From: a virus
Length of the DNA stretch: 64,000 bases
Reading direction: 5' to 3' (one strand)
IMG/VR virus record: IMGVR_UViG_3300045988_080644
Below the pieces are notes generated by a model. That model ran no database searches and had not been told where the DNA came from. It saw only the letters and a program-made list of their open reading frames with translations. Position 1 is the first letter of the stretch, and each line of letters starts with the position of its first letter. Positions 37,139 to 64,000 of this stretch are shown here, one piece after another. The position numbers and the translations under genes are program-made.

Positions 37139-39006
37139 TATTTAAGTTTCAATAGGGGGGAACTACTCCTCCCTTTGTTGCTTATTAGCCAGTTATAGTG
37201 TCTGATAAGCGAACTTCAGCTATTCCAGAAGAAGCCGTAGCTGCTAAAGTAGCTAGTGATGCTGATAAGGGTAAATTAACTAGCAAAGATTTATATACTA
37301 TGCTTAAAGAAAAGCTTAAAGGTTTACCTAGTGACGTAGATGTAGCTATGTGGAAACTTCAATCTGTTGAAGAGTCCCTCAATTTAGATTTTTTTCATGA
37401 TTTTACATCTAATGTAGAAAATAGGTATTTAAATGCTTTACAAACTATGAATCAACTTTCATTTAGTAGAGAATAGTATGATAAGGCTTTAGATAATGTA
37501 AAATCTAATGGAGGACTTAATGAAGCGGCTATAGATTAGTATGGTCAAGTATATATGACTAACGGTAAAGACTATAAGTTAATGTCTCCTGAAAAAGCTA
37601 AATAGTCCGGATGGAAACAAATGACTAATTAGGATTTACTCTATTTAAGAGCTAATGACCCTAGTTTGTCGGGAAAAGATGAGATTTTAAACATAGTTAA
37701 TAATGGTATAGGAATAGATAAGGTAACAGAATATATTCAAAAATGTATTCAAGGATTAGGAGCTTCTAAATCTGAAGAAAATCTATATGCTAATGTTAAT
37801 GCAGGAACTATATTAAAGGGCTTAAATGATTTTAAATAGGCGGTAGCTTAGTCTGGAAATTATGATGCCACTGTTCAAGATCTATACAGTGGTAAATTAA
37901 TGACTAAAGATTCTGCAGAATAGGCTCAATAGGCATTAACTTACATATATAGAAGTTTGCCTAATAATATGAAATCCCTTTTAAAAACAAGAACAAAAGG
38001 GGGTACAGATGATGAAGCTTTAGTTATGATAGGACAATTAATCAGTTCTAAGACTTCTCCTGAAAAATCATTTGAACTTAAATTAGAAGATACTGCTTTA
38101 GACCATTAGGAAAAATCAGGTAAAGGAGATAAAGATCCTCATTCTATAGAGGGTTTATCTATGAGTCCAGTAGATATGTTACAAGCAGGTTATGGTTAGA
38201 AGAATGATTTTACTATTTAGACAGCTGCAGGTGCTTCTAATGGTATATAGATTCCTACAGTACAAATGCCTATAACTAAGAAGGGCGAGGGTATTGGCAT
38301 GGCATCATTAAGTGATGTAGCATCCAGCGATTATGCAGGTTATCTAGATTTTAGTAATGCTTTTATGGGGGATGTTTAGATACCACAAGCAGGAATGTAG
38401 AATATAGCTATAGATGGTACTGCTTTATATACAGCTTATTTACCTTTAGACATGTAGTATTTTAATGACACAGGTTAGAAAAGACCTGATATAGCTATGT
38501 TAGGTAGATATAAATAGGCACAGAATGAAATAAGACAATCAGGAACTAAAGATCCAAGATAGATTAATGCCATCTATAAAAATCATAATTTACCAGTAAT
38601 GTACAGTCCTAATGGAGATATTTTAACTAACTATATCAAGTTTGGTATAGTAAATGGAACCGCTTTAGATAATGCCTTTGGTGATGAAGCTAAAGTAGCT
38701 GATTATTTATCAGAAACTACTGATAAAAATACAATAGCTAATACTCTTAATATTTTAAATAAGGGTAGGGGTGAAAAAAATAAGGTAGAATATGATGAAA
38801 AAAGTTGGTGGGATTCTATATCTCCTGTATTTAACGATTATACTCATGTCTATAAAGGAACTATATTTATGCCTATTAATGATGATTACTTTACTTATTC
38901 GGCAGCAGCAGGTTCTAAACCAACAACAGCTTAGGCAGAAATGATTGAAGCTAGATAGTAGGCTGCTAATAAAACTCGTAATTATGTAAATCCAGGACAA
39001 CTTTAA
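37135..39006 (+). CDS. virion cargo-type protein (623 aa)
   Basis: ATG 37135; track fragments 37198 and 38599 share frame 1, and the gene ends at TAA 39004-39006. The N-terminus is MIFKFQQGGTTPP. Confidence 0.7.
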
Positions 39007-42000
39007 TGAAAGAAAATGATATTATATTAAATATGTTAGCTAACCCTAAATTTACTCTTGAAGATTTTCAAGCTGTAGGTTTAAATAGTGATAACACTGG
39101 GTTACAATCAGAAGATAAATATTTACAAAGTGATAAGATTAAGTCTGTTAGTGCCTTTTAGGATTCTAATGGGCAGTTTGATAAAAATAAATTTCATAAC
39201 TTTTACTAGAGTGCAGGATAGTTTTATAATTAGATGTCTAATGATGATTATGAGAAAGCTATTTTAGAACAAGCACAGTATAGTAAAGATAATATATGGG
39301 TAAATCCTAAGAAAAGAACTGTAGATTATAAACCAACTTTAGTTAAAAGAGCAAATCCAACTTTAGTAACTAATAGTTTGGAATAGATGGGTCAGATGGG
39401 AAAAAGGACATTATCTACTTCTGAAATAGCTTAGACACAAGCTGTAGTAAATCCTATTACTGGTGAGAAATCTGCTAGCCCTAATGATTCTTTCTTTTCT
39501 AATCTATTTAATACTTTAGTACTCGCTTCTTATGATAATGATGTAGTAGATCCAAAGACAGGAGAAGTATTACATAAGAAAGGTGACTTAAAATATAATG
39601 AGGATGGTTTACCTTATTATGAGACTTTATCAGGACGTGATGTACATGATAAATAGGTTCTTAATAAGATGAACACTCTTACCACTGATGGTTCTGTATG
39701 GAATAAATTTGACTTTTTTGATTCTGATGATTTAGATTAGAAGGGAATTGGCTCATCTTTATTAAAGAATGCTGCATTAGTGGGAAGTATGTTTATTCCT
39801 TATGTGGGTCCAGTAATTACTGGATTAAGTGTAGCTACTTAGACAGCAGGATTACTAGCCACATTAGGTAAACTTGTTGCAGGAAATGATAATCCTACTT
39901 TAAACAATATATAGGGATGGGCTAAGTCTGTTAATAGACAATCTGCTACAGAATATGCTTAGCAACATACTTGGTGTGCTGAGAACTTTATTAATATGAT
40001 TGGTGATACCATAGGATAGTTAGCAGAATAGCGATGGATATTTAAAGCAGCTCCTGTATTATTTGAAGGAAAGGATGCTTGGAAAGTAATGTCTAAAGAA
40101 GGCTATGATGCTTTAAAGAAATCAAAGCTTGCAGAGTTACAAAAAACATCAAGTTTAACTACTGACAAATTATTGTAGGATGCAGTAAGTGAAAAGAATG
40201 TACCCTTATTACAATAGTACATGACTGAACTTAATGCTATTAATGAAACTAAAGCTGCTAAATATGTTGATGATTTAGTTAGAAAAGCTAACAATATAGG
40301 CAGTCCTCTTTCTAAAGCTTACATGATAGGTATTACTGTATAGGATACTTATGGTAATGCAAAAGCTGCAGGAGCTTCAGACTTAGAGGCGGCTTTATTG
40401 ACCCTTGGTTATGCTGGAGGTGAAGCTTGGATTCTTAATACTGGTTTAGGAGAATGGATATTACCTGAATTACATATTGACAAGTTTAAAAATAAAGCTA
40501 TAGCTGAAGCTTTAGTTAAACCAGTTAATGATGCTAAAGAAAGATTAGAATAGACTGGAGACAAGCAAGGATTTGTAAAAGAATTACTCAAGATAGGTAG
40601 AAATGTAGCTACTAACGTATATGCAGAAAAAGCTATGGCTAAGAAATCTGCTGAAGTTATAGGAGCACATGCATTAGGTGAAGCATTTGAAGAAACTTCA
40701 GAAGAGTTATTAGCAGATGCTTCTAAAGCGATACTTAATATAACTAGATGGTTAAGAGGAAAAGATGCTCTTAATTTCTGGGATGGAGATAATGCTTTAG
40801 ATAGATATACTATGTCTGCATTAGGAGGTTTACTTGGTGGAGGGATAACTTCTGCTGCAACTAATTTTAGTTAGGTAAGAAGCTTAGCTGGAATGGATAA
40901 CTCTGCAGCTATGTAGCAACTCTTATATATGGCTAATAATAATTAGTTAGGTGATTTCTTGAAACAAGTAGATAAAATGACACTTGGAGACAAGAATAAA
41001 TCTGCTACTAAAACTATATATGATTCAGAACAAGGAGTAATATTTGCAGAAGGAACTAAAGATGATAATCAAGACCTTGCTGCTAAACAAGCTATTCGTA
41101 ATTAGGTTAAATTTATTGACAATATATTAACTACTAATGGTGCTAAGATAAGTACTGACTCATTACTTAGTAAATTAGCTATGGAGGATTAGTAGGATGT
41201 TCTTAGGAATCTTAAAATAGGTAATTTAAAAAATACCAATGTTATAGGTACATATGCTTAGGACTACTTGAATTTACAAGCAGATTTAATAACAGCCTCA
41301 GCTTAGTTAAAAGCTATTGATGATGAAATAGGTGATGTAAAAAGTGCCGCAACACCAGAACAATAGAAAGCAAGAACAGATAAAGCTGCTGAAATTGACG
41401 GCATTAGAGGTAGATTACAGGAATATCTTAATGGCACCATCTCTCCTGATTTTATTAGAGATGCTGTATTTGAGATAAATCCTCTGATTAATGACGGTTT
41501 TGTTATTACTTCATTAGAACAATATACAAAAGCTAAAGTAGGAAAATTACCTAATTAGCTATCTGATACTGAGCTTACAAAACTAACTGAAGAGTTTAAA
41601 AACTACATGAACAGTGATGGTAAAGAGTATACACATACTGCTGCTGCAGCTTACTAGAATATGATGGAATTGGGTTCTCCTATAGTGCAGCAGTATTAGG
41701 AAATAATTAAATAGGCTAATGTTAATAATAATGCTCAATTTATATAGGATTTTAACTAGTTTATCACTAACTATTTAATTAAGTTGGATAGTATTGATAC
41801 TACTGACTAGGAGGCTTATCAGACTAAAGCTTAGTTATTAAATGATTCTCTAGCTTACGGAGCACTTAGATAGATGGCACAACCTTATCTAAGTGAGGAT
41901 TAGAGAAATCGTCTATAGAGTATTGCTGATAGTACAGAGACTGATCCAAATGTTATAGCGCAATTAAATCAAGAAGCTAATAATATTCTTATGGAAACTA

Positions 42001-45000
42001 TCTCAACTAATGTTGATAACCTAGTTAAACCAGTACTATAGTAGGGATTCATACATCCTGAAGCTAGAAAAGCATTACTCTAGGGATTGTCTAAGTTAAA
42101 GGATTTAATTGCAACCAAAGCAGATAATGACTTTATGGAGGTTTACCCAGGACATCCAGATTATGAGGAAGCAAAAAAACGTCGTAAAGAGTCTGTAGAA
42201 AATATTCATCAAATTGATGATTTATAGAAAAAAATTGAGAAACTGCCAACCACACCTGCTTTAGAGTTTATTGATAAATTTAAAATAGGGGCAACCAATT
42301 CTTAGTTAAAGTTTTCAGACCATTGGTAGCAGACTATGGATTTATTAGATAACAATAAGGATGATATGTCTGAATTTGGAACTGATGAAGTATGGGAAGC
42401 TAATAATCAAGAGGCGCTTAGACTAGCTAAAGCCTTTAGGTCAGTACTTAATGGTATGAAAGTTGATAATGCAGATATAAATAACCCAACAGGTTATTCT
42501 AGAATGCTTAATTTAGTATATTAGAAATCTGCACAGAAAAATTATGTACCTTTAGCAGAAATAAGTACTTAGGAAGCTAATATGATGCTAGAAGATGTCA
42601 GCAAAATTATAGCTAGACTAGAATTTGCTGATACCTTAGCTAAAATGAATAGGGGTTAGAAGCTTAAAGAATAGAACAAAGTAGCTGCTAGAAAAAATCA
42701 ATTATTATATAATGGTACAAAAAGACTTATTGACACTTTATCAGACTCTGATTGGAAAGATACTAGTATAGCTGATTTAAAAAATACTTTTAATAATATT
42801 ACTACAGAAGTTAAAGATGCTTTAGAAGGCGAGGGAGTTAAATAGAGTAAAGAAACTAGAGCTGCAGTAGAAAAATATATGATGCAGTTAGATAATGCTA
42901 TATATGATTTCTTTCAAGCTAATAAGGATTCTAAAGGGGAATTAAGCGTTGAGAAAATAGGAAAGTTATTAAAGAAATTTGCAGGCAATGCAGGATTCTT
43001 TTAGAAAACTAATAACATACTTAATGAATCTACTAAGTCTCTAAGTGATAATTCTTATATTTGGTATTTAGCATCTAGAGCAGCAGTTAGAGCATCTGAT
43101 TTTTATGGTTCCTATAAGAAGGCAGTAAATGACAAAGTTGCTCCTATTGCTAGTTAGGAACTTGCAACTTATTTAGGAGTAGCAGCTATAGCTAATATGA
43201 ATACTCTTAACAAGTTTGTAGATGCATATAGAAATACTGTTGTTTAGGAATTTAATAATTTATCTGAAAAAGAGAGAACTGACTTATTAAACCAGTTTGA
43301 TAATAGTGGTGAGGCATATTCTAAGGATTTACTTAAGTACTTCGGGGCACATGATGTTCTTCCTCAATATAAGAATATGATATTTATAGAAGGTATTGCT
43401 GGAAGTGGTAAAAGTAAAGCAGTATTTAGAAATGTAATTAATACTATAAATCATATTAATCCAGAATACTTAAAAAATGCTTATTATGTACATGAGACTA
43501 GTGATTCTGCATAGAAAGCGGCTGAAGACCTAGAATTACAAGGATAGACTTTTGGACGAGTTGATTTTTTAAAACATTTATCTTCTGAATGGAAAAATAT
43601 TAGAGATAATAGTAAAGACAGAAAGAATTACTTATATAAAGATTCATATAAATTTGATCCATTTACAGGTAAATTAGAGAATACCTGGAAATTAAATAAA
43701 ATAGCTGATGCTCCTAAGGTAATTTTTATAGATGAGATTTCTCACTATAATTAGTAGGAAGTCAGTATGATAGAATAGTGGGCAAAGGAACATGGAACTA
43801 TTGTACTTACTGCTGGTGACTTTGATTAGGATACATCTATTGCTTTTATAGATGATGTTAAATATAAGGGAAATCCTGTAAGTGTAACCTTAAATAGAAA
43901 TAATTTTATAAGAAGTCCTAAGTTAGGGGTATCTTTACGTACTTTAAATAAATAGCTTACCAATTGTACTAAAATGATGTAGTTAGCTATTTAGAATCTA
44001 AATGATGGTAAAGATGTAGATTTAAATTTCACTTATCTAGATAACGATCCAGAGCACTTAGGTCTGTTTGGTGTAAAAATAGCTAAGCCAGTTAATGTCT
44101 TAAAAGGTTTAAGCAAAGAGGAACTTGATAGAATTGTTCCTACTATAGATTTGATGGTATCTACTTCAGGTGATGAGAAAATAGGATATATTTATCATGA
44201 TACTAATACTGAATTATATAAGTTATTAACTACTAAATATAAGGATAAAATAATACCATATAAAGATTCTGATGCTTAGGGTCTGGAAGGTAAATATTAT
44301 ATAGTAGAGAATGATATTCATTCTAATGTACCTGATTCTGTCTATTTAAGATCTTTGTATACAGGTATAACAAGAGCTTCACAGGGAGTTTTAGCCATAA
44401 CACCAACTACTACTAAGGGTATTAAAACTATAGGGACATCCTAGGATAAGAGATTTTAGTTAGAGACCATAGGTGCTGAAGCTATTAAACATGCTTCCAA
44501 AGAAAGATTAGAATAGTTAGAAGATATGGTTGATGATAATAATGCCATAACTAAATTAGAAGCACCTACTAATACACCTACTCCTACTAAGCCCCAAGTT
44601 TCAGGTGGTTTACTTCCAATTTTAGCACCTGCAAGTGTTCCTCCAGCTAATACTGCAACTAGTTAGGCTGATGCTAATATAGAAGTTGAGAATTTTAAAA
44701 AGCTTATATATAATCTTGATGGCACTACAAATTCAATAGCTAAGAAATTAGATCAGGAATTTGATATAATAAGTGTTGAAGCTAAAGAGGATAATGGTAA
44801 TTGGATTCCTACTGTTAAGTTAAAGAATGGGGATGATGAGTTTGGTGTTCCTTTAGTAGATTTCAATAAAGAATATACTTTATAGAAGAAGGATGATAAA
44901 ACAACTGTTCCTCTTTACACAGTTGGACAAACATTTTTATTGCAAACAGGTCCTACAGACACTTAGATAACTATTGATGAAGTCTTATCTGGAGAACCAC

Positions 45001-48000
45001 TTACATATAAGGTACACGATAAAGAGGGTAAATCCTTTGAAATAACATAGGAATCTATTTAGAAATTGTATAAGGGAGAAGTCCCTACTGAACCTATAAC
45101 TCCATAGATTACTACCATAACTACTGGAATGGAAAATACTTCAGAAGAGGAATATGAATCTGCAATATCTCAATCTAATATAGAAGACACTGTTGAGACT
45201 CCTAAATCAGTAGGCACTCTATATACTATGAATACTTACTTACCAGGTATGAAAAATGACAATGGTAAAGCTGTATTTGATGATGATTCTCCAGAAAGTC
45301 AAGCTAGACATGATGCACGTATTGATGGATTTGTAGGTTTATCGAGAATACTAAAGACTGATGATTGGAAGGAGTTAGATGACTACTTTGCCTACTGTAG
45401 AAACGCTCTATTTACAAGTGAAAGGAATGCTGATGCAGCTAAATATTTAGCTAATATTTTAGGATTAACAGGTAATGTTAATATTAGATATGCCTTAAAA
45501 AGTTCTGCAGGTAGAATTAATTCTTCAGACCCTCGCTATTATAGATATGATTAGGGAGAAAATGAAAAATGCGAGTATTTACATTCTGATAGTAAGGATG
45601 CAAACGATGCTATGAGAAAAAAGGTGGTAGCCATCTTATTTAATGATGGAAAGCCAGTTCTTGAAATCCCAGTAGCATCTTTAAATTCACCTATTTCACT
45701 AATTTATTATACAGATGAAGAAGGCAATTTATTACATCCTGATTTAAATAAAGCTTATACAGATGCATTAATTAAGTATTAGGGTAACAAGAATTAGAGT
45801 GATTTAGCAGTATAGGAAGTAATTAATTAGTTTGATAAGAGTGGAACAGACTAGGATATAGTTGACTTATTTAAAGTGTATAGATTTACAGGAAATGGAA
45901 TATTCTTTTTTGATGAATCATTTAATCTGGCTGAATAGTCTCCTACAGGAATTATACTTACCGGAGAAAAAGGTAAGTTACAATAGAATGGTAGTTATTA
46001 GACTTCTAATAAATTTATAGATGTGTCAGAGTTAGCTAAGAACCCTTAGTTTAGGGTATCCAAAATATTGACATCTAGGGACGGTTTAGTTAATGGAACA
46101 CATGCTGTAAACCCAGGTCATTCTTTCATTCTAGTTGGTAATCCTAAGGAATTTGCAGGAACTACTGATTTAGTTAATTAGTATGAAAGACAAATAGCAG
46201 ACCCTAAGGCACCTAAAAAAGTATCTTTATATTATGTAATGCCTCCTAAGACTACAGTATCTGCTTGGCTTACTAATTAGCATAATTTATATTTAAATAC
46301 CTTGGGATAGAACAAATAGGTATATAATATAGGTAATGACTTCACAGGATATAGAGTATTAGACTGCTTAGATAAACAAGGTCTTTTAGATTCTATACCA
46401 TCTATAGGAAGTACTGCACAAGGCTATAAGTCGGGACAAGATGTATTAGATTCTATTAAAACAATACTCTCTAATGTTAGAGCTATAGAAAGTAAATGGA
46501 AAGGTGATTTAGCTTTAGATAACTCTAATCAGATAGAGGGTAGAGGTGAGGAAGAATACTATTAGATGCTAATTAACTAGGGAATGAAAGAACCTGATGC
46601 TAGACGAGTAATGTCTATCAAAGAAGTTAATTAGTATCTTAGACAACCTAGTTCATTATTATTTTAGGAAGGACGTACCAATAATTAGGTTCTTAATGCT
46701 TACTTAACTTGTATGGTTTGGAATAGGACTAAGGCTATCGGTTAGAAGGAAGTTATTACATATCACCCTGAAGTGCTTGATTAGATATAGTAGGCGTGTG
46801 AAAATGCAGAGGAACCTTTAAAAGACATATTCTATAAAACTCAATATACAGATAAAGCTCATGGTTCGTTCCTTGAAATATAGTAGAGAGCTAATTGGTA
46901 GCTAGAAGGCATAAACGGAGATGCAGCATTTAGAATTAATGCTCGTATCGACACAACTAATTTTACATCAGATGAACTTCCAATAGCTAGAATTGCTGGA
47001 GAAATAGAATAGAAAGCCATAAGAACTAAAGATGGCAGGGAAGTAAAAGTATGGAGTATGACTCCAGATGCTAAATAGAAATATGAGGCAGTTTATTTAG
47101 ACTAGAAAAAATTAGAAAATAAACCAGACCCTATTGATGAGTATGCTCCTTATATGCAAAAAATAGGAATATCTGAAAAAGAATTAGCTAACATAATAGC
47201 CTTAAACCATGGAGACAAATCTGCTATACAAAGAGATATAGCTAGGTGGTTTAATTCTTAGGATGTTCATAATTTTGGATTCACATATAATGGCAATATT
47301 TATTTATTTAATAATTCTGAATATTCATTAATTTCTAGACCTACAAGCTTAGCTACCACAGATAACTTAGTTTTAAAGGGAGTAGATAATAATGGAGAAC
47401 ATGATATAACAATCACCTTCAATGTAGATGGTAATGGTAATATTACATCTATGTAGGGTAATGTAACTACTTTTAAATAGGTAAGTGCTGGACGTTAGAT
47501 TCCTGATTATATGGAGAGTATGGAAGAGCAATTAAAGGATAAGAGGTCTTCGTGGGAATACTATAGGGATGATATTCAAAGGGAAGACCATGGAATAACT
47601 TATATAACAGGTATTCCCTATCAATCAACTATAGAACCTTCCATAAACTTAGCTGTTGATTCTGGTGTACTGCCTAAAAAGTATGCAAAGTATTTAAATA
47701 AAGATAGACCTGGCTCAATAGCCTTAGAGGACTTGCAAGAGATAATTGATATATTTAAGAAAAAAGGTATTAATAGTCCTACGAATTTGCTATCTTATAT
47801 TAAAAATGATGGAATTACTGTATCTAAGGAAGAATGGGAAGAAGCTTAGAATGGTATTAGGGATTCTATACCTCCACTATTAGCTAGAAATAGTGTCTTT
47901 TTAAGAGAGTATGACAAATCTATTTCAGCTCAAGGTAAACGAGATCTAAAACGTAGTTTAGGGACTGCGAAAAAATTCCTATCCACAGTTAAAAAGAAAG

Positions 48001-48251
48001 GAGACAAGGTTAAAGAAGAAGCTTGGGAAAAAGTGATTTCTATAGTAGAATCAATAACGTCTTCATCTACCCCTACTATATCATTAGAAAATGAAGATAC
48101 TGTTATTTAGAATGGTAAAAGATATACAATAATTGATAAAGAAAACTTAATTGGAGAAGATGAGGTTACTAAAGAATAGGTAACTTTAACTACAGATAAT
48201 TTAATTAAAGAGGAAACTTAGTGTATTCCTGTTAAATTTAATATGATTTAA
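39006..48251 (+). CDS. giant virion protein (3081 aa) with embedded SF1-helicase-like P-loop NTPase domain
   Basis: TAATG-coupled ATG 39006. Track fragments 40635, 42336, 45129 and 47511 share frame 0. I read 39006-40700 and 47850-48251 and found only TAG in frame. The gene ends at TAA 48249-48251. Walker A GIAGSGKS (43392-43415), Walker B VIFIDE (about 43720), TAGDFDQ, and ...YTGITRASQGVLAI. Confidence 0.7.
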
Positions 48252-48252
48252 A

Positions 48253-51200: not shown

Positions 51201-54200
51201 TGAAAATGTAGAAATTCGTCTTATTGACGGTACCAACTCTTCTGCTAAGACCTATTTAAAAGACAATTATAAAGATTGGATTCATAATGGTAAAATGGTA
51301 TTTGCTAAGGTTAACGGTAAGGATATATTAACTAAATAGGACTTAATTAATTTAGGACTAGATATTAATGATCCACATTCTTGGAATATAGAATTACATC
51401 CTATGCTTAGTAAGTATAATGCGTTAGACTATTTCTTTACTTCTCAATATATGTATGCAGGAGTAGGATGTCATACTAATCATCCTTCTAAGGCAGATTA
51501 TAATGTCCCTATTATTTATAAGCATCCAAAATTAGGTTTATCTACATTCTTATAGAATAATCCTCAAGCTGCAAACTATCTCATGGATTTTGATGACTTC
51601 TTTAATGAAAAAAGAGATGCATTTATTGAAGCCCAAACTCATGTAGAAAAATCTATCCCATTCTCTGATGATGAAGGCTATGTTTACTATGACACTAATC
51701 CAGAATGGACAAAAGCTAAAGAAAATTATTTAATATAGAATTAGAATAATCCAGAATTTTAGGATTTTGTAAAGAAAGCATGGAATGAAGCTAAACTTAT
51801 AGCTAAGGAATAGAATAAAATTTTATTAAATTCTAGTTCTATTGTATTAAAGATGTTCCCACAGGACTTTAGTAAAGTATTAACCATGTCCTAGGAAGAA
51901 GCAGTAGCACGTGGTATGGATCCAGATTGGAAAAATACAATTGATACTGCTTTAAATGGTTTAATAGTACCTAAAATAGAATTCAAATCAGGTGAATATT
52001 TTGACAAAGCATTTAGCTCTTATTTAACTAAAGAAATGGATAAACTTCTTCAAAATGAAACTGAAGATGAAGCATCTCGTTTTGCAGCATAGCATAAGAG
52101 AAATGTATCTTATACCGCAGCCATGCATGAGTTTCAATTAAATCAAATAGATGGCGTGCCTTCTGTCTATAATATGGCAATTATGTCAGATTTGAAGTCT
52201 GATGTGTATACAGTATAGGCAGATGTGGATAAAGCTACTAATTTTGATGGTGCTACCTTTGTAAATCCATTTATAGTTATTTGGGAGAACAACTCCCTTA
52301 ATGGAGATAAAGCAGGTATAAATAAAAAGCAATTTGTACACTTTTATGATAGAGCCACTGGTACAGGAGGTATTATTAAAACTGCAGGATTTGGTTTAAC
52401 TAATGACAAAATAAGACAGTTTGACTTCTACCGTAATATGATGTATAATATGACCGGTAAGAAATGGAAAAATGCTGATGGTTCTCAATATATTATGCGT
52501 GATGGGGGTATTCTTAAAGACTTTGAAGACAACGACATTGACTATGGTGATTTCTACTATAGAAAAGGGGCTAAATTTTATAAGAGACGTATTTAGTCCT
52601 ATGATGGAAATAACACTTATTCTATATTAGAGCAAGAAGTTGATGAAAATGGAGAAGCAAAGGGTAATGAGAATACTATTCAAGTATAGGTAAATTCTAA
52701 CTATGATGTGTGGCAAATGTTTGGAGGTATGAATTCTGTAGACTTCTTAGATGGAACTCTTCAAGGTTCTGAAAAGTCTATAGAAATGACTGCACATGCT
52801 GCCAATATTTATGGAACTAAAAAAGAGGGTGTTATCAGAGCGCAGACAGCAGATGACATTATCTAGCCTATGAAGCATTCTGATATACATTATATGCCTA
52901 CTATAGGTGCTGTTAAACACGGTGCTGCAAACATAAATCCAGTCTCTTCTTTCTTTAGTAGAAATGGTCTAAGTTTTATGTAGGTAGAAGTGAGATAGGC
53001 TGGTATTTAGCTTGATAAGGAACATCAAGCTGATAATGAAGACTTGTCTCTTATGACTTAGGTTATTTCAGCTGCTTGTTCTATGGGATACACTAAGGGA
53101 GAGGCTACTAATCTATATAATGCTTTATATAGTCTATCTAAATAGGCTACTAAGGCATTTAGAGACGAAATGGGAGACCTATTAAATGGATTCTCTGATA
53201 GCTTTAATGCTGCGGTAACAGAAACTATTATGAAGTCTTTGATTAATGCTTCAGCTACAGACGGTGATATGCTATAGTTAGTAGCAAAGAATATTATAAA
53301 GAAAATAAATGCTGAAAAATAGTTTTCTATCAATAAAACTAACTACGCTGACATTGATAAAGAAATTCCTTATAGTGATGCTGCTGTTTCTGCTAAGGTA
53401 GTTAGTTCTTTAACCGCTGCATTAACTAAAGCTGGAATTAAAACTAAAATGCCTGGTCTTTTAGCAGTATTAAATCCAGCTGAAGGTATTATAAAAATGT
53501 ATAAAGTGCCAGCCAAAGACAAAGATGGCAATATTCTATTAAATGAAGATGGTTCTACTGTATATAAATATGTAACTATGGATGCCATAGAAAAAGAGTA
53601 TGATACAGAGAATGCTTTTGAAATAATGGAATAGTTACAAGCAGAAACAGGACCACTTAGTTATAATACTGATGAAACTGGATTAATAACTAGTATGCCT
53701 GATGTCAAAATAGGACGTAAATACTTAGTTACTTTCTCAGATGGGGTCAACAAATCTACTAAGGTTGTAAATGTGACATTACCTCATAGAGTGGAGTCTG
53801 ATACTAGTACTGTATTTTATAATAATGTTCCATATCAAGAATAGACTATGGGATATAGAAAACTTATAGACTATTTAAATGGAATAGTTAATGAGGAAAC
53901 TGGAGTTACTAACCAAATTACAGAAGTTAAGGAGTTTTTAATAGGAGGTCAGGACTTAGATAGTTATGATGTAAAATTTTAGGATTCTTTAGGTAATAGA
54001 TGGCAAATGTCTGATTTAGATATTGTACAAGATTATTTTGAAGCAAGAGAATCTAAAGACCCCAGAAGAAAAGTATTAGAAATATTATCTAAGTATGATA
54101 AAGACTAGGAATTAAAAGCTGCTATAATTAAGGAATTTAATGAGTCTAATAATTCAAATAAAGTTAAGATTGTCAATGATTTAAATGATAATTTTAATGG

Positions 54201-57200
54201 AATTTTCTTAACTGAAACTCCTATGTATAAAGAGTTCTTTTAGAAGTATGCATTAAAATTCTTAAATAGAGAAATGCAACGACAGTTGACCGCTTTAAAT
54301 CCTGAAAATACAGAGCCTTTAAATGTATTAATTAATAATAAAGTAGTTACTGTATAGCCTTCTACTATTGATATAACTAGTTATGGAACAGTAATACCTA
54401 AGACAGCTGCTTCCTCTTTTGGTCTTAATTAGTATGACTAGGTTAGTGATATTGTTAACAATCCTGATTTCTTCTTAGATAGATTAGCTAAGAGACTTAA
54501 TACTAAAGTTTAGGATTATTATAAGGATGGATAGTTAGTATATAATTACCACTTGGAGCTAAAAAGAAATGATGGTAATCATGTTTATATAAGAAGAGGG
54601 ATTGATAATTCTGACTTCGCCAATGAAATTTAGTGGTTTAGGTATGTTGATTCTGATGGACATGTATTTAGAGTAAACAGTGATGGAAATATTATGCATC
54701 CAATGTATAGTGAGAATGATAAAATATATACTGACTATGATGGAAATGAAATAATAGTTACTGAAGCTAAAGATACTTGGAAAGATTCTAAAGGCAATGA
54801 AGTAAAGAATCCTGATATAAAGAAAATTCGAGGCATCACCATTGATTAGAAGACTGGAGAAGAAATCCATTTAGATTCTCCATTTACCTTTTACTTAGAT
54901 AACCTTAATTATAACTTTGTAAATTTAAATGCAAATTGCTCAGAAGCTGAACTATTAAATTTATTAGATGCAGCCAGAAGTAGCAAATCTAAAAAGGCTA
55001 ATAATTTTGTAAAGAGACTTGCTAAAATAGGTAATTATGATAAATAGGTGGACTATTTAGATAAACTTACTAAGTATGAAGATTTAATAAAAGGAGATAC
55101 TAAAAATCCAGCATATTTAGCCTTACAAAAGGAATCTAGATAGATATGGACTTCTTTTATGAAATATCTTGAAAATGTAGCAGCACGTATCCCTGCTTAG
55201 TCTTAGTAGTCTTTCATGGCTCAAAGAGTAGCTATGTTTGAGAATACAGATACAAATAATGCTTATGTAAGTAAATTCTAGTTCTTCTTACAGGGAAGTG
55301 ACTTGGATATTGATGCGGTATCTATACAAACATTTGATATAAATAGCAACGGTATTTATGAAACTTATTCTCCGTATGCTAATCTGGATTCACCAGCACT
55401 TCTTAAAGTTTCTGAAAAATACTTACCGTTCCCAACTGGAGATAGGATAAAAGTTGAAGAAATTCATGATCCAACTATAACTACTATGCACTAGTTAATA
55501 GCTAAATAGCATTATGATGGTAAAAGATTATTTGGATTAGCTAATAAACTTAATTAGTAGGATGCTTTATTCTTAATAAACTATACTAGAAATAAGGATG
55601 TAATCGTAGAGGTAAATACTAACAGTGAATAGAATATAAAAGATTTAGCTGATATTCTTGAGTCTATTAATTCAGAGGATTGGTATTCTTACGAAGATGA
55701 TATATCTAATACTAGAGCCTTAACAACTTTATTATTTCCAGATAATGAAATGGTATTGGATGTAGATTTATATGATAAAATAGAAAATGGTATAATTGAG
55801 GCTATAGATAAACATAATACTTATTTAAAGAATAATTCTAAAGCTAAGAACGATAGAATATTAAAGAATTTTGCTGTAACTTCACTATTAAATATTATTA
55901 AAAATCCAGTTAATCTTAGAGAGGCTTAGTCTTCTGTAGATGTTATGACATCAACTGCTAAGAACTTAACTAAGGCTTCTCCTAAAAATGCAGTACAAAA
56001 AACCTTTACTCCAGGTAATGTATTTAATAAAATCTAGAGTATCAATGAGAATATGGTTGGTAAAGATGGTATTGCTATCTGTGCGACAGGTCTTAAATCT
56101 TTCTTTGCATTAACTCATATGTATAATACAGTATTAAATGATGAAAACACTAGTAATTAGGAAAAAGAAGCTTTAATGTGTAAGGTAACAATTGGAGGTA
56201 AAACATATAGAGGACTCGCTAACGTAAATGCTAATTAGGAGTTAATAGAAAGTTTAGCAGATGCCGAGAATGGTAATTTTACTACTTTACAGAATTACTT
56301 ATTAGCTCAAGAATGGGAATCTGATGCTGCTAATGAAGCTTCTGCTTTTCTGTCTCTTTCAACTGATAATGCTAAGGAGTTAGCTTTAGCTAAATTAAAT
56401 GCAGGTACTCAGACTTTGGGTATGTATTTATATGGGTTATCTCTTGGAGTTCCAGTAGACACTTTGTTTAAAATAATGACTTCTCCATTTGCTTTTAGAT
56501 TAGTAGAATTAGCAAAAGGTGATACATTTAGTGGTAATAGTGGTTGTGGAACTATAATTGGTACTCTAGACTACTTACATAAAGACCCACTAGAATAGCT
56601 TTCTAGATTTAATACATTTGATTTATCTACATATAACGAAGGTAAACCAAAAGATTAGAAAATATTAGGTCCAGCTGATTTTGCTTGGTAGTTATTGTAG
56701 AATAGTATAGCAGATGATTATAATGAAAAATTACCACTTCTTAGATAGTTAGCTTATAAAGGTAATGCTATTTAGTTAATTGAAGATTTAAGGTCTAAAG
56801 TTAATTAGATTAGTAGTGTTATCTAGACAAAAGATGAATTTAATCTCTATTCAACCTTATATAATCAAGCACTAGACTTTATGGAATAGTATATTGCTGA
56901 TGTCTAGCTAGAGTTAGATAGTGGAAGTTACGATACTGTATACGGAAAATCCATAATAGCTACAGACTTAGAAACTCTTGCTCTTGGTGCTGATGAATAT
57001 AAAGAAATAGGTAAAATTCTTAGACTTAATCAAGAAGTAAAGACTAATGCTTTAGATTTACAAAACTAGGTAGCTAATATTGAAGAAGTTATAACTAGAA
57101 GACTCAGACAATTAGCTAGAGTTGAAAATAGGGGAAGCTACTATAGTCATGGTGCCACAAAAGATGAGTTAAAAAATCCTGATAAATATAAGATTGATTT

Positions 57201-58635
57201 AGAAAAGTTTTTATATGATGAAGTATACTAGTAGGAAAAAATAGCGTAGTATGATAGAATTAAACAATCTTATAATGTTTTACGTGTTCTTACTACAGAT
57301 CCTTAGTATAAAGGTTATATGGAAACCTTATATATGGCTCATCAAGGTCTGTTAAATAAGTAGTTAAAGTATAGATTTACAGTAGGTAAAATTGCAGATT
57401 TTATTTAGAAAAATAAAGTTACTGGTAATTTATAGTAGTAGGTACTTAAAAATGGTAACAATTATGTTGACTATAAACTAAGACAAAATTGGATGCGAGA
57501 TAGTAAAATACAGATTACTATTCCTGGCAGTACCGATAAAATGAAAACTTATGCGTTTATAGGAACCCCAAATAGTTATAGTTAGTTATACTTTGATAAA
57601 ACTATACAACTGGGCACTGATATGGGAGATGCTAATTTTAAATTATGGATGGAGCAAACTCTTATTCCTAGACTTAAAGCGGACCCAACATTAAAAGATA
57701 ATATATTTATATAGCATTTAAGTCCTATAGTTAACTCAAGAACTAATTTGGGTATGACTGCGGTTTATTATGGATTAAATGGAATAAACATGTTGCCTTA
57801 GTCTGACGCTGAAAGAGAAATGTTTGATATACATAAAGACGCTTTTAATAAATTAGCAACCTATGACTTGATTAGGGACGCTAAAGGTCATACTTTTGCC
57901 ATAAAAGACTTATTTTATCTATATTCTTTAATATGTAATAACGGTAAATTTGGTCCTACTTCTCTACATAAAATATTTGAGGATTATCTAGATTCAGGTC
58001 TAGCCTAGAGTTATAAACACTTTATAGCAGAAAAAGATAGAGACTTAGATTTCTACCAGGATTTAGTAAAGACATGTACAGATGAATGGCTTGCACCTAT
58101 GAGTTCTCCTTATGTTGGAGGTTCTAAAGTACTCAAATATAAGGATTAGAACAATGAATAGATTCTACTTTATAAAAAGAAGGAAAAGAAGTCAAAAGGT
58201 GGATATGACTATGATGTCGAGTAGGATATGGATGACATCTTTATGAATGATATGGGATTTGATCCAGAAGGTGGAAAAGACCCTATGGCAGAAATCAACA
58301 ACTATGTTAAATAGGAATCTAGTGCCCTAGCTAAAAGAGACTATAGTTTCTTCTCAAATCCTGAAGTTAAATATAATACATCAGGTTTTCAAGTATTATC
58401 AACTAAATCAGAACTAATTAATTAGCATCCTATAACCTACGAAGTTAGAGATGGTAAACCTGTATTAGTAAATATAGGGGGTGATGGGGAGATTGCAAAA
58501 AAGTTTATGAAATTAATGAAAGATCGTAAGGGAATATTACCTACTAAGTAGATTCTTGGAACAGATGGATTTACTGCAGTAATTAATGAAGAATAGATTG
58601 AATCAGAATTAAATAGTATAATAAATTGTGGATAA
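48253..58635 (+). CDS. giant virion RNA polymerase-like protein (3460 aa), crAss/YonO-type double-psi beta-barrel
   Basis: ATG 48253; track fragments 49936, 51103, 52225, 53449, 55303, 56416 and 57820 share frame 1. I read 50128-51102 and found only TAG in frame. The gene ends at TAA 58633-58635. AARIPAQSQQSFMAQRV-(about 25 aa)-GSDLDIDAV places DxDxD at 55300-55314, with the same R-to-Asp spacing as RAPTLH...NADFDGD of RNAP beta-prime. Confidence 0.7.
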
Positions 58636-59683
58636 TTGTTTAATTAAAGATTTAGAATATCGGACTAAGCTATCTTAGTCTGGTATTCCTGAATCTATAT
58701 TTTATCCATTTTGCAATGGATTTATGAATAAGTATGGGAGATTACCTAATCTAGATGAAATTCCAAATGTTGATTCTTCTCAACATATAATTAATAAACT
58801 GCATCTAGATAGTAATAGCTCAACATCTATAGATAATATCATGTCTTCTACTAATACATCAAGTATTGAAGAAGCTAATGTTAGTTTAAATGATACCTAT
58901 AAAGATAAAGATATAAATATAATTCCTTTATATAAAGAAGCTTTAGTTGACATAAAAGATAGACCTTCCGAATATAAAACAATAGAATAGGAAAAACATA
59001 AAGTAGATAGAAATCCTAATATGCAGGGAGTATTTAATTAGTTATTTAATAAGTTAGAGAAATAGTATGGAGTACAATTACATACTATTTCAGATAAAGA
59101 ACTGGCTAGTGATGAATGGTAGGGAATACCTGAAATTTAGACAGCTAATGCTTTTATTTATAATGGAGATGTATATATAAATACAGACCATGCAAAAGCC
59201 GATGCTCCTATACATGAAATGACTCATATGTTATTAGGTTCTATTAGATTTAAAAATCCTGATCTTTATTATGGAATTGTACAACAAGCCTAGGATTTTC
59301 TAACATTTAATTAGTTTATAGAACAAAACCCAAATAGAGCTATAAATGATAATATGGAAGAATTATTTGTTACAGAAATGTCTAAATATCTAGCAGGGGA
59401 ATCTAGCATTATTGAATAGTTAGATGAAACCGTTATTAATGAGTTACATTATAACATGAAGAGACTATTAGATACTGCACTTATGGGTTAGTATAGTGTA
59501 AAAAGTATTCCTGATTCTAAGTTATATAGAATGTCTTTAGCTGATTTAGTAGAAACTGTAAATTCCCAGATGTTAGAAACAAGTTTTTATGGAAGCCTAG
59601 ATGACGCTGCTTTGCATAGAGTATTAGCTAATACTAAGTCAGATTTAATGAAAAAAGGTGATTTAAGAGAAGATTGTGTATGA
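58628..59683 (+). CDS. HExxH-motif protein (351 aa), possible Zn-metallopeptidase
   Basis: Frame 2 opens after TAA 58622-58624. GTG 58628 is the first plausible start (ATG 58724 is the alternative). APIHEMTHMLLG lies at 59213-59227. TGA 59681-59683 overlaps the next ATG. Confidence 0.6.
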
Positions 59684-62600: not shown

Positions 62601-64000
62601 TAAAATGAGACCTTTAATTAGCAAAGATAATGGAGCAACTTTTAAAGAGAGAATTCAAAATACTTTAAAAGATATACAATCTAAATATTTATCTGATGAA
62701 ATAGATTAGTAGCAAAGTATTGACGGTGAAGTATTTAAAGTAATAAATACTATGGATTAGGGAAGTGGTCCTGGCAGATTAGACTTAATTAAACATCTAC
62801 AAGGAAAATACGGATCTAATTGTTTTGAAACGGATATAGAAAAAATATTAGGTGCTCATATGATGGCATATGCTACTCAACAAGCCATGGAAGATAGAAT
62901 GCCTTTAATTAAAGCAGCTTATATATCCTTAGCAGTAATGGGTAATAACTAGGGGGTAGACTATTCTTCTGATGAGAAATATATTAAAGAATATGTTCAA
63001 AATAAAATAAATAAATTAGCAATAGATAATCCTTAGTTAAGACATTTAAGGAGTGCCACTGGAATGTTACAAAAAAGTGCTTCTTGGATGGCATTAGCTT
63101 TTTCACCTTTACAAATGTCTTATTAGAGTCTGGAAGGTGTTTGGAAGGCTGCTAAATTAGTTATAACTAAACCAGATGGTAAAGAAACATTTAGTTTTTC
63201 TAATATGCGTAAGGCTATGGGTATTGTATATAAAGAATTGTTTAATTATAGTGAAACAAATTCTGTAATAGAGGGTTGTAACGCTCTTTATGGTATAAAC
63301 GATATGGATGCTGCCTCATTTGCTCAAAACAATAGTACTAATAAGCATGGTCTGTTTAATTTCTTTGACAGAATTGCATATTATTGGTCTTCTCGTCCCG
63401 ATTTCTATAATAGAATGTCAATATTCACAGCATAGATGCTTGAAGATGGTAGTTATGAAGCTCATTCAGTAGATGCCAATGGTAACTTAATATACAATAT
63501 TAAAAAGGATAAGAGATTTGAAGCATTATTTAATAAACCAAAGGGTTCTCCTGAATATAATAAAGCAAAAGCCTTATTCTTAGCCACTGCTTAGTAGTTA
63601 GTGAGGGAAAACGCTAGAAATGCCGATGGTTCATTATACACCATAGATTTAGATAATCCAAATTTACCTAAAGCCTACTCTAATAAAGAGTCTGAATCTA
63701 TGAAAGCTATTGGGGATACCATGTATGGATATTACGATAGTTCTAAGAAATCATTATGGCAATCTACATTCTTAGGAGGCCTTATGATGCAAATGCAAAC
63801 ATATTGGTCTGGTAAAAAGAATTAGTATCTTGCTCCTGGAGGTATTAAAGCACAGGGTAAATGGGTCTAGATGGTAAGTCCTAATGGTAAAAAGTGCTAT
63901 TATTCTAAAAATGAAAATGGAGATATTGATAACTCCTCAATGCCTATAGAAGAGGGAGATCCTAGAGCTAGTGAAGTACCCTTTATGCAATGGAAGGGTA
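59680..64000 (+). CDS. giant virion protein (>1440 aa, 3' end outside window) with N-terminal PD-(D/E)XK RecB-family nuclease domain
   Basis: ATGA-coupled ATG 59680. Track fragments 60256, 60697, 62347, 63205 and 63601 share frame 1. I read 60994-62346 and found only TAG in frame. GRLDLLVIDEDGIPHIMDYKTS (60559-60624) is followed by TY-Q-LSTY (QxxxY), whose Q is TAG 60676-60678. Confidence 0.7.

Follow-up and report, generated by a model that had tools for sequence, protein, structure and literature searches.

A packaged giant-gene block, with helicase-like, peptidase-like and nuclease domains around a putative virion RNA polymerase, proposed for an amber-recoded crAss-like phage

In the Crassvirales, the transcription block closes the structural/cargo operon and is immediately followed by the strand flip to the replication module; its layout is giant, RNA polymerase (RNAP), giant: gp47, gp49 and gp50 in ΦcrAss001, and g067, g066 and g065 in phi14:2. 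The three ΦcrAss001 products have been found to be virion proteins by virion mass spectrometry (PMC10172136; PMC8375218), and MS/MS virion evidence is given in the database record for all three phi14:2 proteins. The phi14:2 polymerase gp66 transcribes only single-stranded or denatured DNA, and it is self-inhibited by a domain that needs refolding or cleavage (preprint 10.1101/2020.03.07.982082). Its eukaryotic relative QDE-1, structurally the closest to the crAss-type RNAPs and likewise preferring ssDNA templates, needs the helicase QDE-3 (same preprint); in the QDE-1/QDE-3/RPA system of Neurospora a two-barrel RNAP relies on both a helicase and an ssDNA-binding protein.

Two other systems are relevant here. 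The virion RNAP of N4-like phages (Schitoviridae) is a giant of ~3500 aa that is packaged in the capsid, ejected for early transcription and in need of a non-duplex template, and RNAPs of this type are always fused to zincin-like metallopeptidase domains (PMC5512222). Polyvalent proteins are giants, presumably delivered along with the DNA, in which zincin-like metallopeptidase, helicase, nuclease, ADP-ribosyltransferase and other effector domains are combined, with the metallopeptidase as the hub domain (Iyer, Burroughs, Anand, de Souza, Aravind 2017, PMC5512222).

We have analyzed a 64,000-nt stretch of DNA, called the window below, from an uncultured phage. Its last 25 kb hold four genes on the plus strand, A to D (Table 1), which are seen only when TAG is read as Gln. 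With that reading, the four genes given by the initial annotation from 39006 to the window edge are real, and their coordinates and lengths agree. We will argue that the block is probably the giant-gene part that ends the late (structural) operon of a crAss-like gut phage, deep-branching and TAG-recoded, in which B would be a two-barrel virion RNAP and A and D RNAP-associated giants, packaged together with C as cargo.

Table 1. Coordinates and main properties of the features discussed in the text.
Feature	Position	Strand	Properties
Phage tail lysozyme gene	29617..30216	+	199 aa; PF18013, E 3.1e-29; upstream of the cargo-like genes
Three cargo-position genes	31303..39006	+	1462, 415 and 623 aa; no recognisable domains
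Gene A	39006-48251	+	3081 aa, 107 in-frame TAG
Gene A domains	aa ~250-300; aa ~1454-1800		N-terminal hydrophobic Gly/Ala-rich segment; central SF1 helicase-like ATPase
SF1 helicase core	43365..44405	+	aa ~1454-1800 of gene A
Gene B	48253-58635	+	3460 aa, 105 in-frame TAG
Most conserved block, gene B	52243..53040	+	FDGATFVNPF (aa 1331), AGINKKQFVHFYD (1354), GGIIKTAGFG (1372), GIQLDKEHQAD (1584)
Catalytic beta-prime-like barrel motif, gene B	55183..55320	+	ARIPAQSQQSF (aa 2311), QGSDLDIDAVS (DxDxD, aa 2347)
Gene C	58628-59683	+	351 aa, GTG start
Gene D	59680 to past the 64000 window edge	+	>1440 aa inside the window
RecB-type PD-(D/E)XK nuclease	aa ~181-352 of gene D, N-terminal	+	Pfam PDDEXK_1

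Under the standard bacterial code (table 11), no ORF of at least 150 aa is found in the 39006-64000 region, and the giant ORFs emerge once TAG is read through. The reading of TAG as Gln in this phage is supported by comparison with standard-code homologues, where TAG stands opposite Q at 33 of 186 positions (a 4.5-fold enrichment). Within the block, TAG accounts for 57-64% of the Gln codons, and the same proteins occur at full length and without TAG in the standard-code relatives MT835470.1 and L013. By chance, a frame free of TAA and TGA would be expected with a probability of ~1e-92 (A) or ~1e-103 (B), and the longest open run in shuffled sequence (50 shuffles) was 188 codons. TAG reassignment is documented for crAss-like phages (PMC7886860; PMC12386605), and a search for a suppressor tRNA within the 64-kb window found none.

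The genes were originally described as all being joined by overlapping stop and start codons. This holds for the junctions of the upstream gene with A (1-nt overlap, TAATG), of B with C (8 nt) and of C with D (ATGA), while A and B are separated by a 1-nt spacer. No terminator-like site was detected on the plus strand at any of these junctions, as had been stated, and promoter-like matches in the block are at chance level only. The lysozyme gene is followed by the cargo-like genes, then by A, B, C and D, and finally by the strand flip. D, whose full length is 1614 aa in relatives sharing ~91% DNA identity, is the final large gene of this rightward late operon. The lysozyme and the hydrophobic proteins said to precede the block are indeed there, the former with its PF18013 match and the latter with hydrophobic Gly/Ala-rich segments in the upstream 2185-aa and 1462-aa proteins; gene A also has such a segment (residues 256-276). 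The three genes directly upstream of A occupy the position of crassvirus cargo proteins, those of 1462 and 623 aa being syntenic with MT835470.1, and the capsid protein has remote similarity to the cr4_1 major head protein.

We now turn to the individual genes. Gene B is a putative virion RNAP of the crAss-like two-barrel type. Compared with the known crassvirus blocks, the present sequences are almost unrecognisably diverged, and B has no match among Pfam, PHROG or PDB sequences. The profile of its catalytic block (aa 2280-2420) aligns with residues 1314-1374, the active site of phi14:2 gp66 (hhalign probability 72%, E 3.3e-5), and with cr55_1 gp_05964 (70%, E 4.1e-5), against E > 0.2 for three control giants. 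The two catalytic motifs are held at a fixed 36-residue spacing, and the pattern RIPxQ...GSDxDID is kept in all relatives. These matches favor the earlier designation of the 3460-aa protein as the RNAP, an assignment that depends on one ~60-residue motif block (the one with the 72% hhalign probability). The most conserved block of B lies elsewhere and has no detectable similarity to gp66; it is a candidate for the second (beta-like) barrel or for an NTP-contacting region. A fold search against the PDB gave 6VR4 at E 2.7, which is not significant, with a model of low confidence at the catalytic loops.

Gene A carries a complete and conserved set of SF1 motifs, consistent with the helicase-like ATPase proposed for the 3081-aa protein: Walker A GIAGSGKS (1463), Walker B VIFIDE (1572), TAGDFDQ, SDAQGLE and YTGITRASQG (1789). 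The Pfam scores are borderline, with AAA_30 at E 4.9e-6 and 26.8 bits, just under the cut-off of 27, and UvrD_C_2 at E 0.012. Motifs I, II, III, IV-like, V and VI are kept in homologues at 22-57% identity, of which that of L013 matches AAA_30 and AAA_19 and that of MT835470.1 is found at E 2e-92. The C-terminal ~1250 aa have no assigned function. In position, A equals gp47 of ΦcrAss001 and g067 of phi14:2. It has no detectable sequence similarity to either, and its helicase profile finds no match in the phi14:2 and cr55_1 giants; A may therefore not be a homologue of gp47/g067.

For the 351-aa gene C, the description as an HExxH protease-like protein is upheld in part. The H, E and H of the motif are invariant across 42 sequences with identities as low as 26%, and of the downstream acidic residues D241, E244 and E245 are nearly invariant; the terminal Cys residues are also kept, and the GTG start agrees with homologues that begin M..C. 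On the other hand, no significant similarity to solved or curated peptidases was found, nor any match to PDB sequences or Pfam families. The AlphaFold model of a 56%-identical homologue (pLDDT 85.7) has the order helix, three strands, HExxH helix, Glu helix, i.e. a zincin-like topology. A PDB fold search with this model found nothing, and its best matches in a viral fold library include large phage proteins (E 7e-6), SprT-like zincins (E 3.6e-3) and proteins with a "large polyvalent protein-associated domain". A zincin-like metallopeptidase of the polyvalent-protein type is thus plausible only. The gene has 111 homologues, belongs to a family with 1633 representatives, and occurs naturally fused to B (P0252) or to D (P0220, P0275).

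The RecB-type nuclease reported in the >1440-aa protein is supported by both profile and motifs. Gene D matches Pfam PDDEXK_1 at E 9.6e-9 (36 bits, cut-off 22) and a PHROG exonuclease at E 4e-5, and the motifs G..IH, GRLDLLVID, IMDYKTS and YQLSTY are kept in six of seven lineages, the relative L002 being without the acidic residue of motif III. D has the position of ΦcrAss001 gp50 and phi14:2 g065 and corresponds to cr55_1 gp_05963, which its nuclease profile matches at 95.4% probability (E 1.9e-8). This terminal giant of cr55_1 also has a Pfam ART-PolyVal domain, and Yutin et al. 2021 (PMC7886860) had noted a PDDEXK domain in large proteins of the transcription block.

The A-B-C-D cassette is kept in relatives down to ~22% identity, which, together with the natural B+C and C+D fusions, argues that the four genes are functionally linked. 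The enzymatic motifs had been expected to persist in related phages. The helicase, HExxH and nuclease motifs do so, with the exceptions of the helicase in the phi14:2 and cr55_1 giants and of the motif III acid in L002.

Compared with the cultured crassviruses, the present block has the same position and the same giant, RNAP, giant layout. It differs in the larger size of its proteins (3081 and 3460 aa), the complete SF1 helicase in A, the separate HExxH gene between RNAP and terminal giant, and the heavy TAG recoding. The proposal that the RNAP and its neighbours share a virion fate is consistent with the published proteomics of ΦcrAss001 and phi14:2, which had already established it for these phages and from which, distant as these relatives are, packaging of A-D in this uncultured phage would be an extrapolation.

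The roles of the four proteins can tentatively be arranged as follows. A-D are TAG-rich (about 3 TAG per 100 codons), whereas the converging module is nearly free of TAG (2 in 1467 codons), and translation of A-D would therefore have to await active amber suppression, i.e. a late stage of infection. It is important to note that "late only" is not universal in the order, since gp49 and gp50 of ΦcrAss001 are transcribed as middle genes (PMC8375218). The proteins would then be packaged as capsid cargo and, in the next infection, be ejected either before the DNA or together with it. Early genes would be transcribed by the protein of gene B. Protein A, perhaps anchored by its hydrophobic N-terminal segment, would use its SF1 helicase to unwind or translocate the entering DNA and so provide the single-stranded template required by crAss-type RNAPs. 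The HExxH protein could serve to process or activate the giants, e.g. through removal of the cleft-blocking region of the RNAP, and the nuclease of D could resect the entering DNA end or attack host DNA. The block would in that case be a known packaged module, here with unusually legible helicase, peptidase-like and nuclease domains, and these domains suggest a way for a virion RNAP that depends on ssDNA to gain its template and to be activated. The neighbouring helicase fits the logic of QDE-1 and QDE-3, with the differences that A and B are known here as adjacent genes and that QDE-3 is a RecQ (SF2) helicase.

Another option is that A and D act inside the producing cell during replication or packaging, as an AddAB/RecBCD-type system for recombination or end processing, with only B, if anything, being packaged and the tight coupling reflecting co-expression. 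The end-resection machines RecBCD and AddAB classically pair an SF1 helicase with a PD-(D/E)XK nuclease. The middle-stage transcripts of gp49/gp50 and the lack of detectable homology between A and the virion-proven gp47/g067 point in the same direction. Moreover, the converging module of relatives has a T7 Gp5.9-like protein, of a RecBCD-inhibitor family, which indicates that the phage engages with end-processing nucleases. We nevertheless consider this scenario unlikely: the genes close the TAG-recoded structural/cargo operon outside the unrecoded replication module, the two domains sit within 3081- and 1614-aa proteins with the RNAP in between, C is fused to B or D in relatives, and virion proteins occupy all three corresponding positions in two cultured crassviruses. 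The ART-PolyVal domain on the cr55_1 giant with the homologous nuclease, typical of delivered polyvalent proteins, also speaks for packaging.

Less probable still is that the motifs are relics and that A, C and D serve mainly as non-catalytic structural or ejectosome parts (channel, scaffold). No domain can be recognised over the bulk of each giant, the hydrophobic segment of A resembles the upstream cargo-like proteins, C matches no known peptidase, the helicase scores slightly below its Pfam cut-off, and L002 has lost an acidic nuclease residue. However, all SF1 motifs are kept although the remaining sequence is at 22-30% identity, and the nuclease motifs in six of seven lineages, the invariant HExxH and the size of the C family likewise argue against decay. 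Such conservation of catalytic residues amid divergence is the pattern expected from purifying selection on active sites. That the giant ORFs are artefacts of TAG read-through, in a region really made of many short genes or non-coding, can practically be dismissed. The short table 11 ORFs and the window without a suppressor tRNA would fit, but this reading is effectively refuted by the open-frame statistics, the TAG-free relatives and the alignment of TAG with Gln; the documented reassignment also speaks against it.

The packaged block can also be compared with N4-like virion RNAPs, with which it would share the giant size, the need for a non-duplex template and the physical link to an HExxH domain, P0252 being a crAss-type RNAP fused to the C domain. 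The N4-like enzymes have a T7-like single-subunit fold and the enzyme here is of the two-barrel (DxDxD) type, so the RNAP-peptidase linkage would be convergent; moreover, the peptidase-like protein here is usually a separate gene. The polyvalent-type domains are here distributed over four co-translated genes instead of one polypeptide, with pairwise fusions in relatives, and the curated polyvalent-protein families (LPD or MPTase Pfam models) gave no significant match to the block. The combination had been called uncharacterised, which is true only in part. PDDEXK domains in the giants and the polyvalent concept are published, whereas no description was found in the accessible literature of an SF1 helicase in the pre-RNAP giant, of a separate HExxH gene, or of its alternate fusion to the RNAP or the nuclease giant.

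Finally, the phage resembles the published Zeta group (proposed Echekviridae), as judged from the published features of that group, TerL and portal lying beyond the window. The genomes are of similar size (155-177 kb published, about 165-190 kb for the relatives' contigs here), the GC content is low, amber or opal recoding varies between relatives, and PolA and PolB both occur. An interruption of the RNAP at DxDxD has been reported for Zeta phages (PMC7886860), and the RNAP genes of the relatives L002 and L012 are split just 3' of QGSDY by an intron-like insertion that carries a LAGLIDADG ORF.

Read with the standard bacterial code, the 64 kb of the window contain only 16 ORFs of at least 100 aa, and no ORF of 150 aa or more is present between 39 and 64 kb; the code hides the entire block of genes A–D from annotation pipelines. 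Reading through TAG gives a continuous plus-strand gene array covering 59.7 of the 64 kb. The giant ORFs are not recovered when TGA or TAA is read through instead. Once TAG is decoded, all four genes described in the initial annotation lie where it had placed them: the helicase-bearing giant A, the putative virion RNA polymerase (RNAP) B, the HExxH protein C, and the RecB-type nuclease giant D, which is cut by the window edge (see the table). The block was also described as free of terminators, and there is indeed no terminator-like hairpin at any of the junctions, while promoter-like matches occur at chance level. The further statement that all genes are joined by overlapping stop and start codons holds for upstream gene/A, B/C and C/D but not for A/B, where the two genes are separated by a spacer.

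Features of the A–D block: genes, junctions and the superfamily 1 (SF1) motifs conserved in gene A homologues
Feature	Coordinates	Strand	Description
Gene A	39006-48251	+	3081 aa, 107 in-frame TAG
Gene B	48253-58635	+	3460 aa, 105 in-frame TAG
Gene C	58628 (GTG start)-59683	+	351 aa
Gene D	59680 to past 64000	+	>1440 aa in window
Junction upstream gene/A			1-nt overlap
Junction A/B			1-nt spacer
Junction B/C			8-nt overlap
Junction C/D			ATGA overlap
SF1 motif I (Walker A)			GI.G.GK(S/T)
SF1 motif II (Walker B, DE)			FIDE
SF1 motif III (GDxxQ)			GD..Q
SF1 motif IV-like			R.PKL..SLR..N.Q
SF1 motif V (QGxE)			QG.E
SF1 motif VI (YxxxTR)			YT..(T/S)R

Glutamine is the most likely meaning of TAG in the window. 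When the proteins are aligned with homologues of a standard-code relative, 33 of 186 TAG positions fall opposite Q, a 4.5-fold enrichment, and TAG would then account for 57-64% of the Gln codons of the A–D block. The open frames of A and B cannot be due to chance: the probability of encountering no TAA or TGA is ca 1e-92 for A and ca 1e-103 for B; in 50 shuffles no open run exceeded 188 codons. That the giant ORFs are a read-through artefact is thus a less likely explanation. No tRNA, and hence no suppressor, was found in the 64-kb window, but the artefact was rejected on account of the TAG–Gln alignment, these chance figures and the presence of the same proteins in standard-code relatives.

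The amber codons are unevenly distributed. Most late genes of the window have about 3-7 TAG per 100 codons, and A–D have about 3 per 100. The capsid gene (9413-10834) and the genes at 10931-11815 and 13457-14467 have 0.4-0.7 per 100, and those at 1370-1822 and 1822-2121 have none. In a close relative, the module that converges on the block contains TAG at 2 of 1467 codons. Since TAG is frequent in A–D and nearly absent from the converging module, the giants would be made only once amber suppression is active, a pattern that fits A–D being late-made proteins destined for packaging.

Gene B is accepted here as a predicted crAss-type virion RNAP on the grounds of motif, specificity and synteny. 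Two motifs at fixed spacing are strictly conserved among its homologues, (A/G)xRIP(A/C)Q..SF and, 36 residues later, (Q/E)GSD(L/Y/F)DID; B itself reads ARIPAQSQQSF, 36 residues, QGSDLDIDAVS, and the pair is kept in all relatives. It thus has a DxDxD (DFDxD-type) metal-binding motif, in a predicted beta-prime-like double-psi beta-barrel, preceded by an R-x-P...S strand, as does gp66 (g066) of the cultured crassvirus phi14:2, an experimentally validated RNAP (10.1101/2020.03.07.982082). A whole-core profile of B aligns with gp66 solely at the catalytic segment, residues 1314-1405 (E 3.3e-4). The RNAP assignment of the initial annotation is supported by a narrower profile restricted to B residues 2280-2420, which finds gp66 residues 1314-1374 with a probability of 72% and E 3.3e-5, and also gp_05964, the 4551-aa giant of the classified crassvirus cr55_1, with a probability of 70%; three non-RNAP giants used as controls each give E > 0.2.

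Other searches with B were blank. Pfam and PHROGs returned nothing useful, PDB sequence searches with B alone and with the family profile had no matches, and at the DNA level B showed no similarity with any known phage. Structure models were built on database homologues of B and C. The AlphaFold model of a 612-aa B homologue (P0126) has a pLDDT of 73.8, falling below 50 at the catalytic loops, and with this model a Foldseek search of PDB folds gave no significant match (6vr4_A at E 2.7, beta-prime chains at about E 1.8). The second, beta-like double-psi barrel may correspond to a highly conserved Lys-rich block of B (aa 1331-1384 and 1584), for which no similarity to gp66 could be detected. 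At aa ~2080-2230 of B (window ~54490-54940), immediately ahead of the catalytic barrel, the homologue model displays some 15 short beta-hairpins in series, whose best fold matches, all non-significant, are choline-binding, CROP and glucan-binding repeats.

In two relatives (L002 23193-24252 and L012 5667-6874, corresponding to ~55300 in the window) the RNAP gene is split just after QGSDY by an insertion that resembles a group I intron and carries a 234-aa ORF for a LAGLIDADG_2 homing endonuclease. The database proteins P0008 and P0009 stop at this split point, and gene B of the window is uninterrupted.

For gene A, the Pfam matches lie below the cut-offs, just below in the case of AAA_30 (E 4.9e-6, 26.8 bits vs 27) and further for UvrD_C_2 (E 0.012, 15.9 vs 27.4); the homologue in the relative L013 matches both AAA_30 and AAA_19. 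The helicase-like ATPase that the initial annotation had seen here is nevertheless supported, as motifs I, II, III, V and VI are all present and conserved. All the SF1 motifs are in fact kept in homologues of 22-57% identity, from recoded and standard-code lineages alike, and this conservation points to a working ATPase or translocase. PDB sequence searches with the helicase segment, and likewise with the nuclease segment of D, gave spurious matches only. The A helicase profile has no match in g065-g067 of phi14:2 or in the cr55_1 giants, nor does Pfam find a helicase domain in them. The module is therefore either lineage-specific or diverged past detection, and A cannot be called a homologue of ΦcrAss001 gp47 or phi14:2 g067, its positional counterparts. 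The protein also has a hydrophobic Gly/Ala-rich segment at residues ~250-300.

The RecB-type nuclease assigned to gene D is supported by a match to PDDEXK_1 (PF12705) above threshold (36 bits vs cut-off 22, E 9.6e-9), a PHROG exonuclease match (E 4e-5) and conserved motifs; PF12705 is found in relatives as well. D has GRLDLLVID, IMDYKTS and YQLSTY, that is, the catalytic D...(D/E)xK and the QxxxY. Six of seven lineages retain G..IH, G.(L/I/V)DLL, D(Y/F)K(T/C/A)S and YQ...Y intact; in L002 the acidic residue of motif III is absent. The D family profile also finds residues 798-887 of gp_05963, the terminal giant of cr55_1, with a probability of 95.4%. Yutin et al. (PMC7886860) had already reported, for some crAss-like phages, a PDDEXK domain within large proteins associated with transcription.

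Gene C belongs to a large family, with 111 homologues in the word-indexed search and 1633 representatives in the exhaustive one. H196, E197 and H200 of the HExxH are invariant in 42 sequences with identities down to 26%, and a downstream D..EE cluster, including E244 and E245, is nearly invariant. The family model is confident (pLDDT 85.7, pTM 0.80). As an order of elements, and not a superposition, it consists of a helix (132-147), three strands (151-154, 175-178 and 181-185), the HExxH helix (195-202), inserted helices and a Glu-bearing helix (239-255), so that the HExxH lies on one helix and the candidate Glu ligands on a later one, as in zincins. The same order has been given by Iyer et al. 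for the zincin-like metallopeptidase of polyvalent proteins (PMC5512222).

Similarity searches with C are less informative. The best PDB fold match of the model is at E 0.8 and not significant, and no known zincin is significantly similar to C. The profile has no matches among PDB sequences, nothing consistent in Pfam and no match in the phi14:2 and cr55_1 giants, of which g065 and gp_05963 each contain an HExxH string; PHROGs gave nothing useful. In the viral predicted-structure library the model matches large uncharacterised phage proteins (E 7e-6 and 2e-5), weakly a viral SprT-like protein (E 3.6e-3), and further the Gundel_1 structural protein and several "large polyvalent protein-associated domain" proteins. 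The HExxH of the initial annotation is invariant, while its peptidase character finds no match in a solved structure or curated family; for this reason, "protease-like" is plausible, not established. The family has in addition a nearly invariant Cys by each terminus, Cys4 (58637-58639) and Cys350 (59675-59677), which could form a disulfide or an additional metal site.

The phage of the window is very divergent. Among ten upstream proteins, PHROGs recognises only the major capsid protein, which also matches phrog_11589, and a tail-fibre domain. The capsid protein shares 60% identity with its counterpart in MT835470.1, an unannotated human-gut record, and 48% with the one in MT835492.1; the only further link is a remote one to the major head protein of the classified crassvirus cr4_1 (22% identity, E 6e-6). 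The signature capsid and gene order of Crassvirales are both found, TerL and portal lying outside the window. The genes run from structural genes through cargo and the RNAP block to a strand flip, the last seen in relatives; this is the canonical crassvirus layout, in which the "transcription block" closes the structural operon (PMC7886860). Near-identical and diverged relatives are found on contigs of 165-190 kb, some TAG-recoded and others using the standard code; human gut metagenomes commonly contain such relatives. Their complete D has 1571-1666 aa and is followed by perhaps one tiny ORF and then by the flip to the converging module, with metallophosphatase, PNK3P, NUDIX, Thy1 and a T7 Gp5.9-like protein, and PolA in one relative. 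Genome size, low GC and variable amber or opal recoding resemble those of the published Zeta group, as do the RNAP ORFs of relatives broken at DxDxD by intron-like insertions with a LAGLIDADG ORF.

The upstream neighbourhood is also as previously described, with an entry lysozyme (the tail lysozyme at 29617-30216; PF18013, E 3e-29) and hydrophobic cargo-like proteins with Gly/Ala-rich segments. In the 2185-aa protein (21485-28042), otherwise without recognisable domains, the strongly hydrophobic Gly/Ala-rich stretch covers 85 residues (aa 692-776); the segments of the 1462-aa protein (aa ~551-640) and of A are weaker. The four genes just upstream of A (28035-39006) have no Pfam or PHROG matches. 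The lysozyme gene is directly followed by one for a DUF192 (COG1430) protein at 30216-30839, the stop codon of the first overlapping the start codon of the second. Another HExxH-type motif, VHEGGHMS, occurs in a 415-aa gene among the cargo-like genes (35691-36938). MT835470.1 contains no homologue of this gene, Pfam and PHROG matches are lacking, and it was rejected as a member of the C family, to which it is unrelated.

Fusions in the relatives tie B, C and D together functionally: P0252 (3661 aa) has the C domain fused to the RNAP C-terminus, and in P0220 (2006 aa) and P0275 (1931 aa) it is attached to the N-terminal end of the nuclease giant. The first of these mirrors the N4-type virion RNAPs, which are fused to metallopeptidase domains (PMC5512222). 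Polyvalent proteins, as defined by Iyer et al. (2017), combine at least two effector or enzymatic domains in one large polypeptide of a phage or conjugative element. Each giant of the window has one recognisable enzymatic domain; in relatives, P0252 joins RNAP and HExxH, and P0220 and P0275 join HExxH and nuclease. cr55_1 gp_05963 joins ART-PolyVal with PD-(D/E)XK.

As to delivery, gp45, gp46, gp47, gp49 and gp50 have been detected in ΦcrAss001 virions by mass spectrometry, and "cargo zones" were mapped in both capsid and tail (PMC10172136; PMC8375218). In the phi14:2 record, g065 ("RNA polymerase associated protein"), g066 (the RNAP) and g067 are marked as MS/MS-verified virion proteins. Presence of the RNAP in the virion and its ejection are known for phi14:2 and ΦcrAss001 only. 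By analogy with these proven virion proteins, the positional counterparts of the block, A–D would be delivered with the DNA. A helicase and a RecB-type nuclease could also belong to an intracellular recombination system, but this is less likely in view of those counterparts. Also less likely is that the enzymatic motifs are relics in mainly structural proteins. The altered motif III of L002 would agree with it, but the SF1 motifs and the HExxH are kept in relatives, as are the nuclease motifs in all other lineages.

The phi14:2 RNAP gp66 is inactive on duplex DNA and efficient on single-stranded or denatured DNA; its crystal represents a self-inhibited state, in which the cleft-blocking domain must "refold or [be] cleaved"; and its closest structural relative, QDE-1, depends on the helicase QDE-3 and RPA (10.1101/2020.03.07.982082). 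Next to a self-inhibited RNAP that needs single-stranded DNA, the adjoining SF1 helicase, RecB-type nuclease and HExxH protein have obvious candidate roles, which we infer to be template unwinding for A, end resection for D, and proteolytic activation or processing for C. In the most ambitious version, to which we give a rather low probability, A–D with their distinct jobs would make up one self-contained injected transcription-initiation machine for a duplex-blind RNAP. A would be anchored at the entry channel and its helicase would open the incoming genome end; D would resect one strand, exposing a single-stranded template; and C would cut the cleft-blocking region of the RNAP, or free domains of the giants, such that B becomes active following ejection. 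The complex would have left evolutionary traces in the alternate fusions, B+C and C+D, and crAss-like and N4-like phages would then have come to link RNAP and peptidase independently of each other.

The initial annotation had regarded this combination as uncharacterised, which is only partly so. Earlier publications cover the packaging of giant neighbours together with the RNAP, the concept of polyvalent proteins, the presence of a PDDEXK domain in these giants, and TAG recoding in crAss-like phages. A complete SF1 helicase in the pre-RNAP giant, a separate HExxH gene with alternate fusions, and the helicase/nuclease/peptidase proposal are apparently not described in the literature examined. 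Among phages of the human gut, crassviruses are the most abundant, and their virion RNAP is known to require a single-stranded template and to be kept in a self-inhibited form. The present lineage supplies concrete, mutable candidates in the complete SF1 helicase, the RecB-type nuclease and the HExxH protein, the last being genetically welded to RNAP or nuclease in relatives. The vague label "associated proteins" is thereby turned into testable hypotheses, and crassvirus cargo is linked both to the N4 virion RNAP and to the wider strategy of polyvalent proteins.

Three further observations concern the converging module and the giants. The near-identical relatives (L006-L009, 18466-18837, minus strand) encode in the module a protein of the Phage_T7_Gp5_9 family, a RecBCD-inhibitor family, which is of note given the RecB-type nuclease in the phage's own cargo-like giant. 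The cr55_1 giant gp_05963 (L001 17719-23742), annotated as hypothetical, has by its predicted domains a polyvalent-protein architecture: a Pfam ART-PolyVal ADP-ribosyltransferase domain at aa 291-399, the HExxH string at aa 517 and, at aa 798-887, the PD-(D/E)XK domain homologous to gene D. Finally, a module of ~170 aa is common to gene B (aa 1087-1258; 51511-52026) and the N-terminus of gp_05963 (L001 18001-18498; phmmer E 1e-18), and in part to gene D (aa 1248-1301; 63421-63582); it could represent a domain of the giant proteins that is mobile or has been duplicated.
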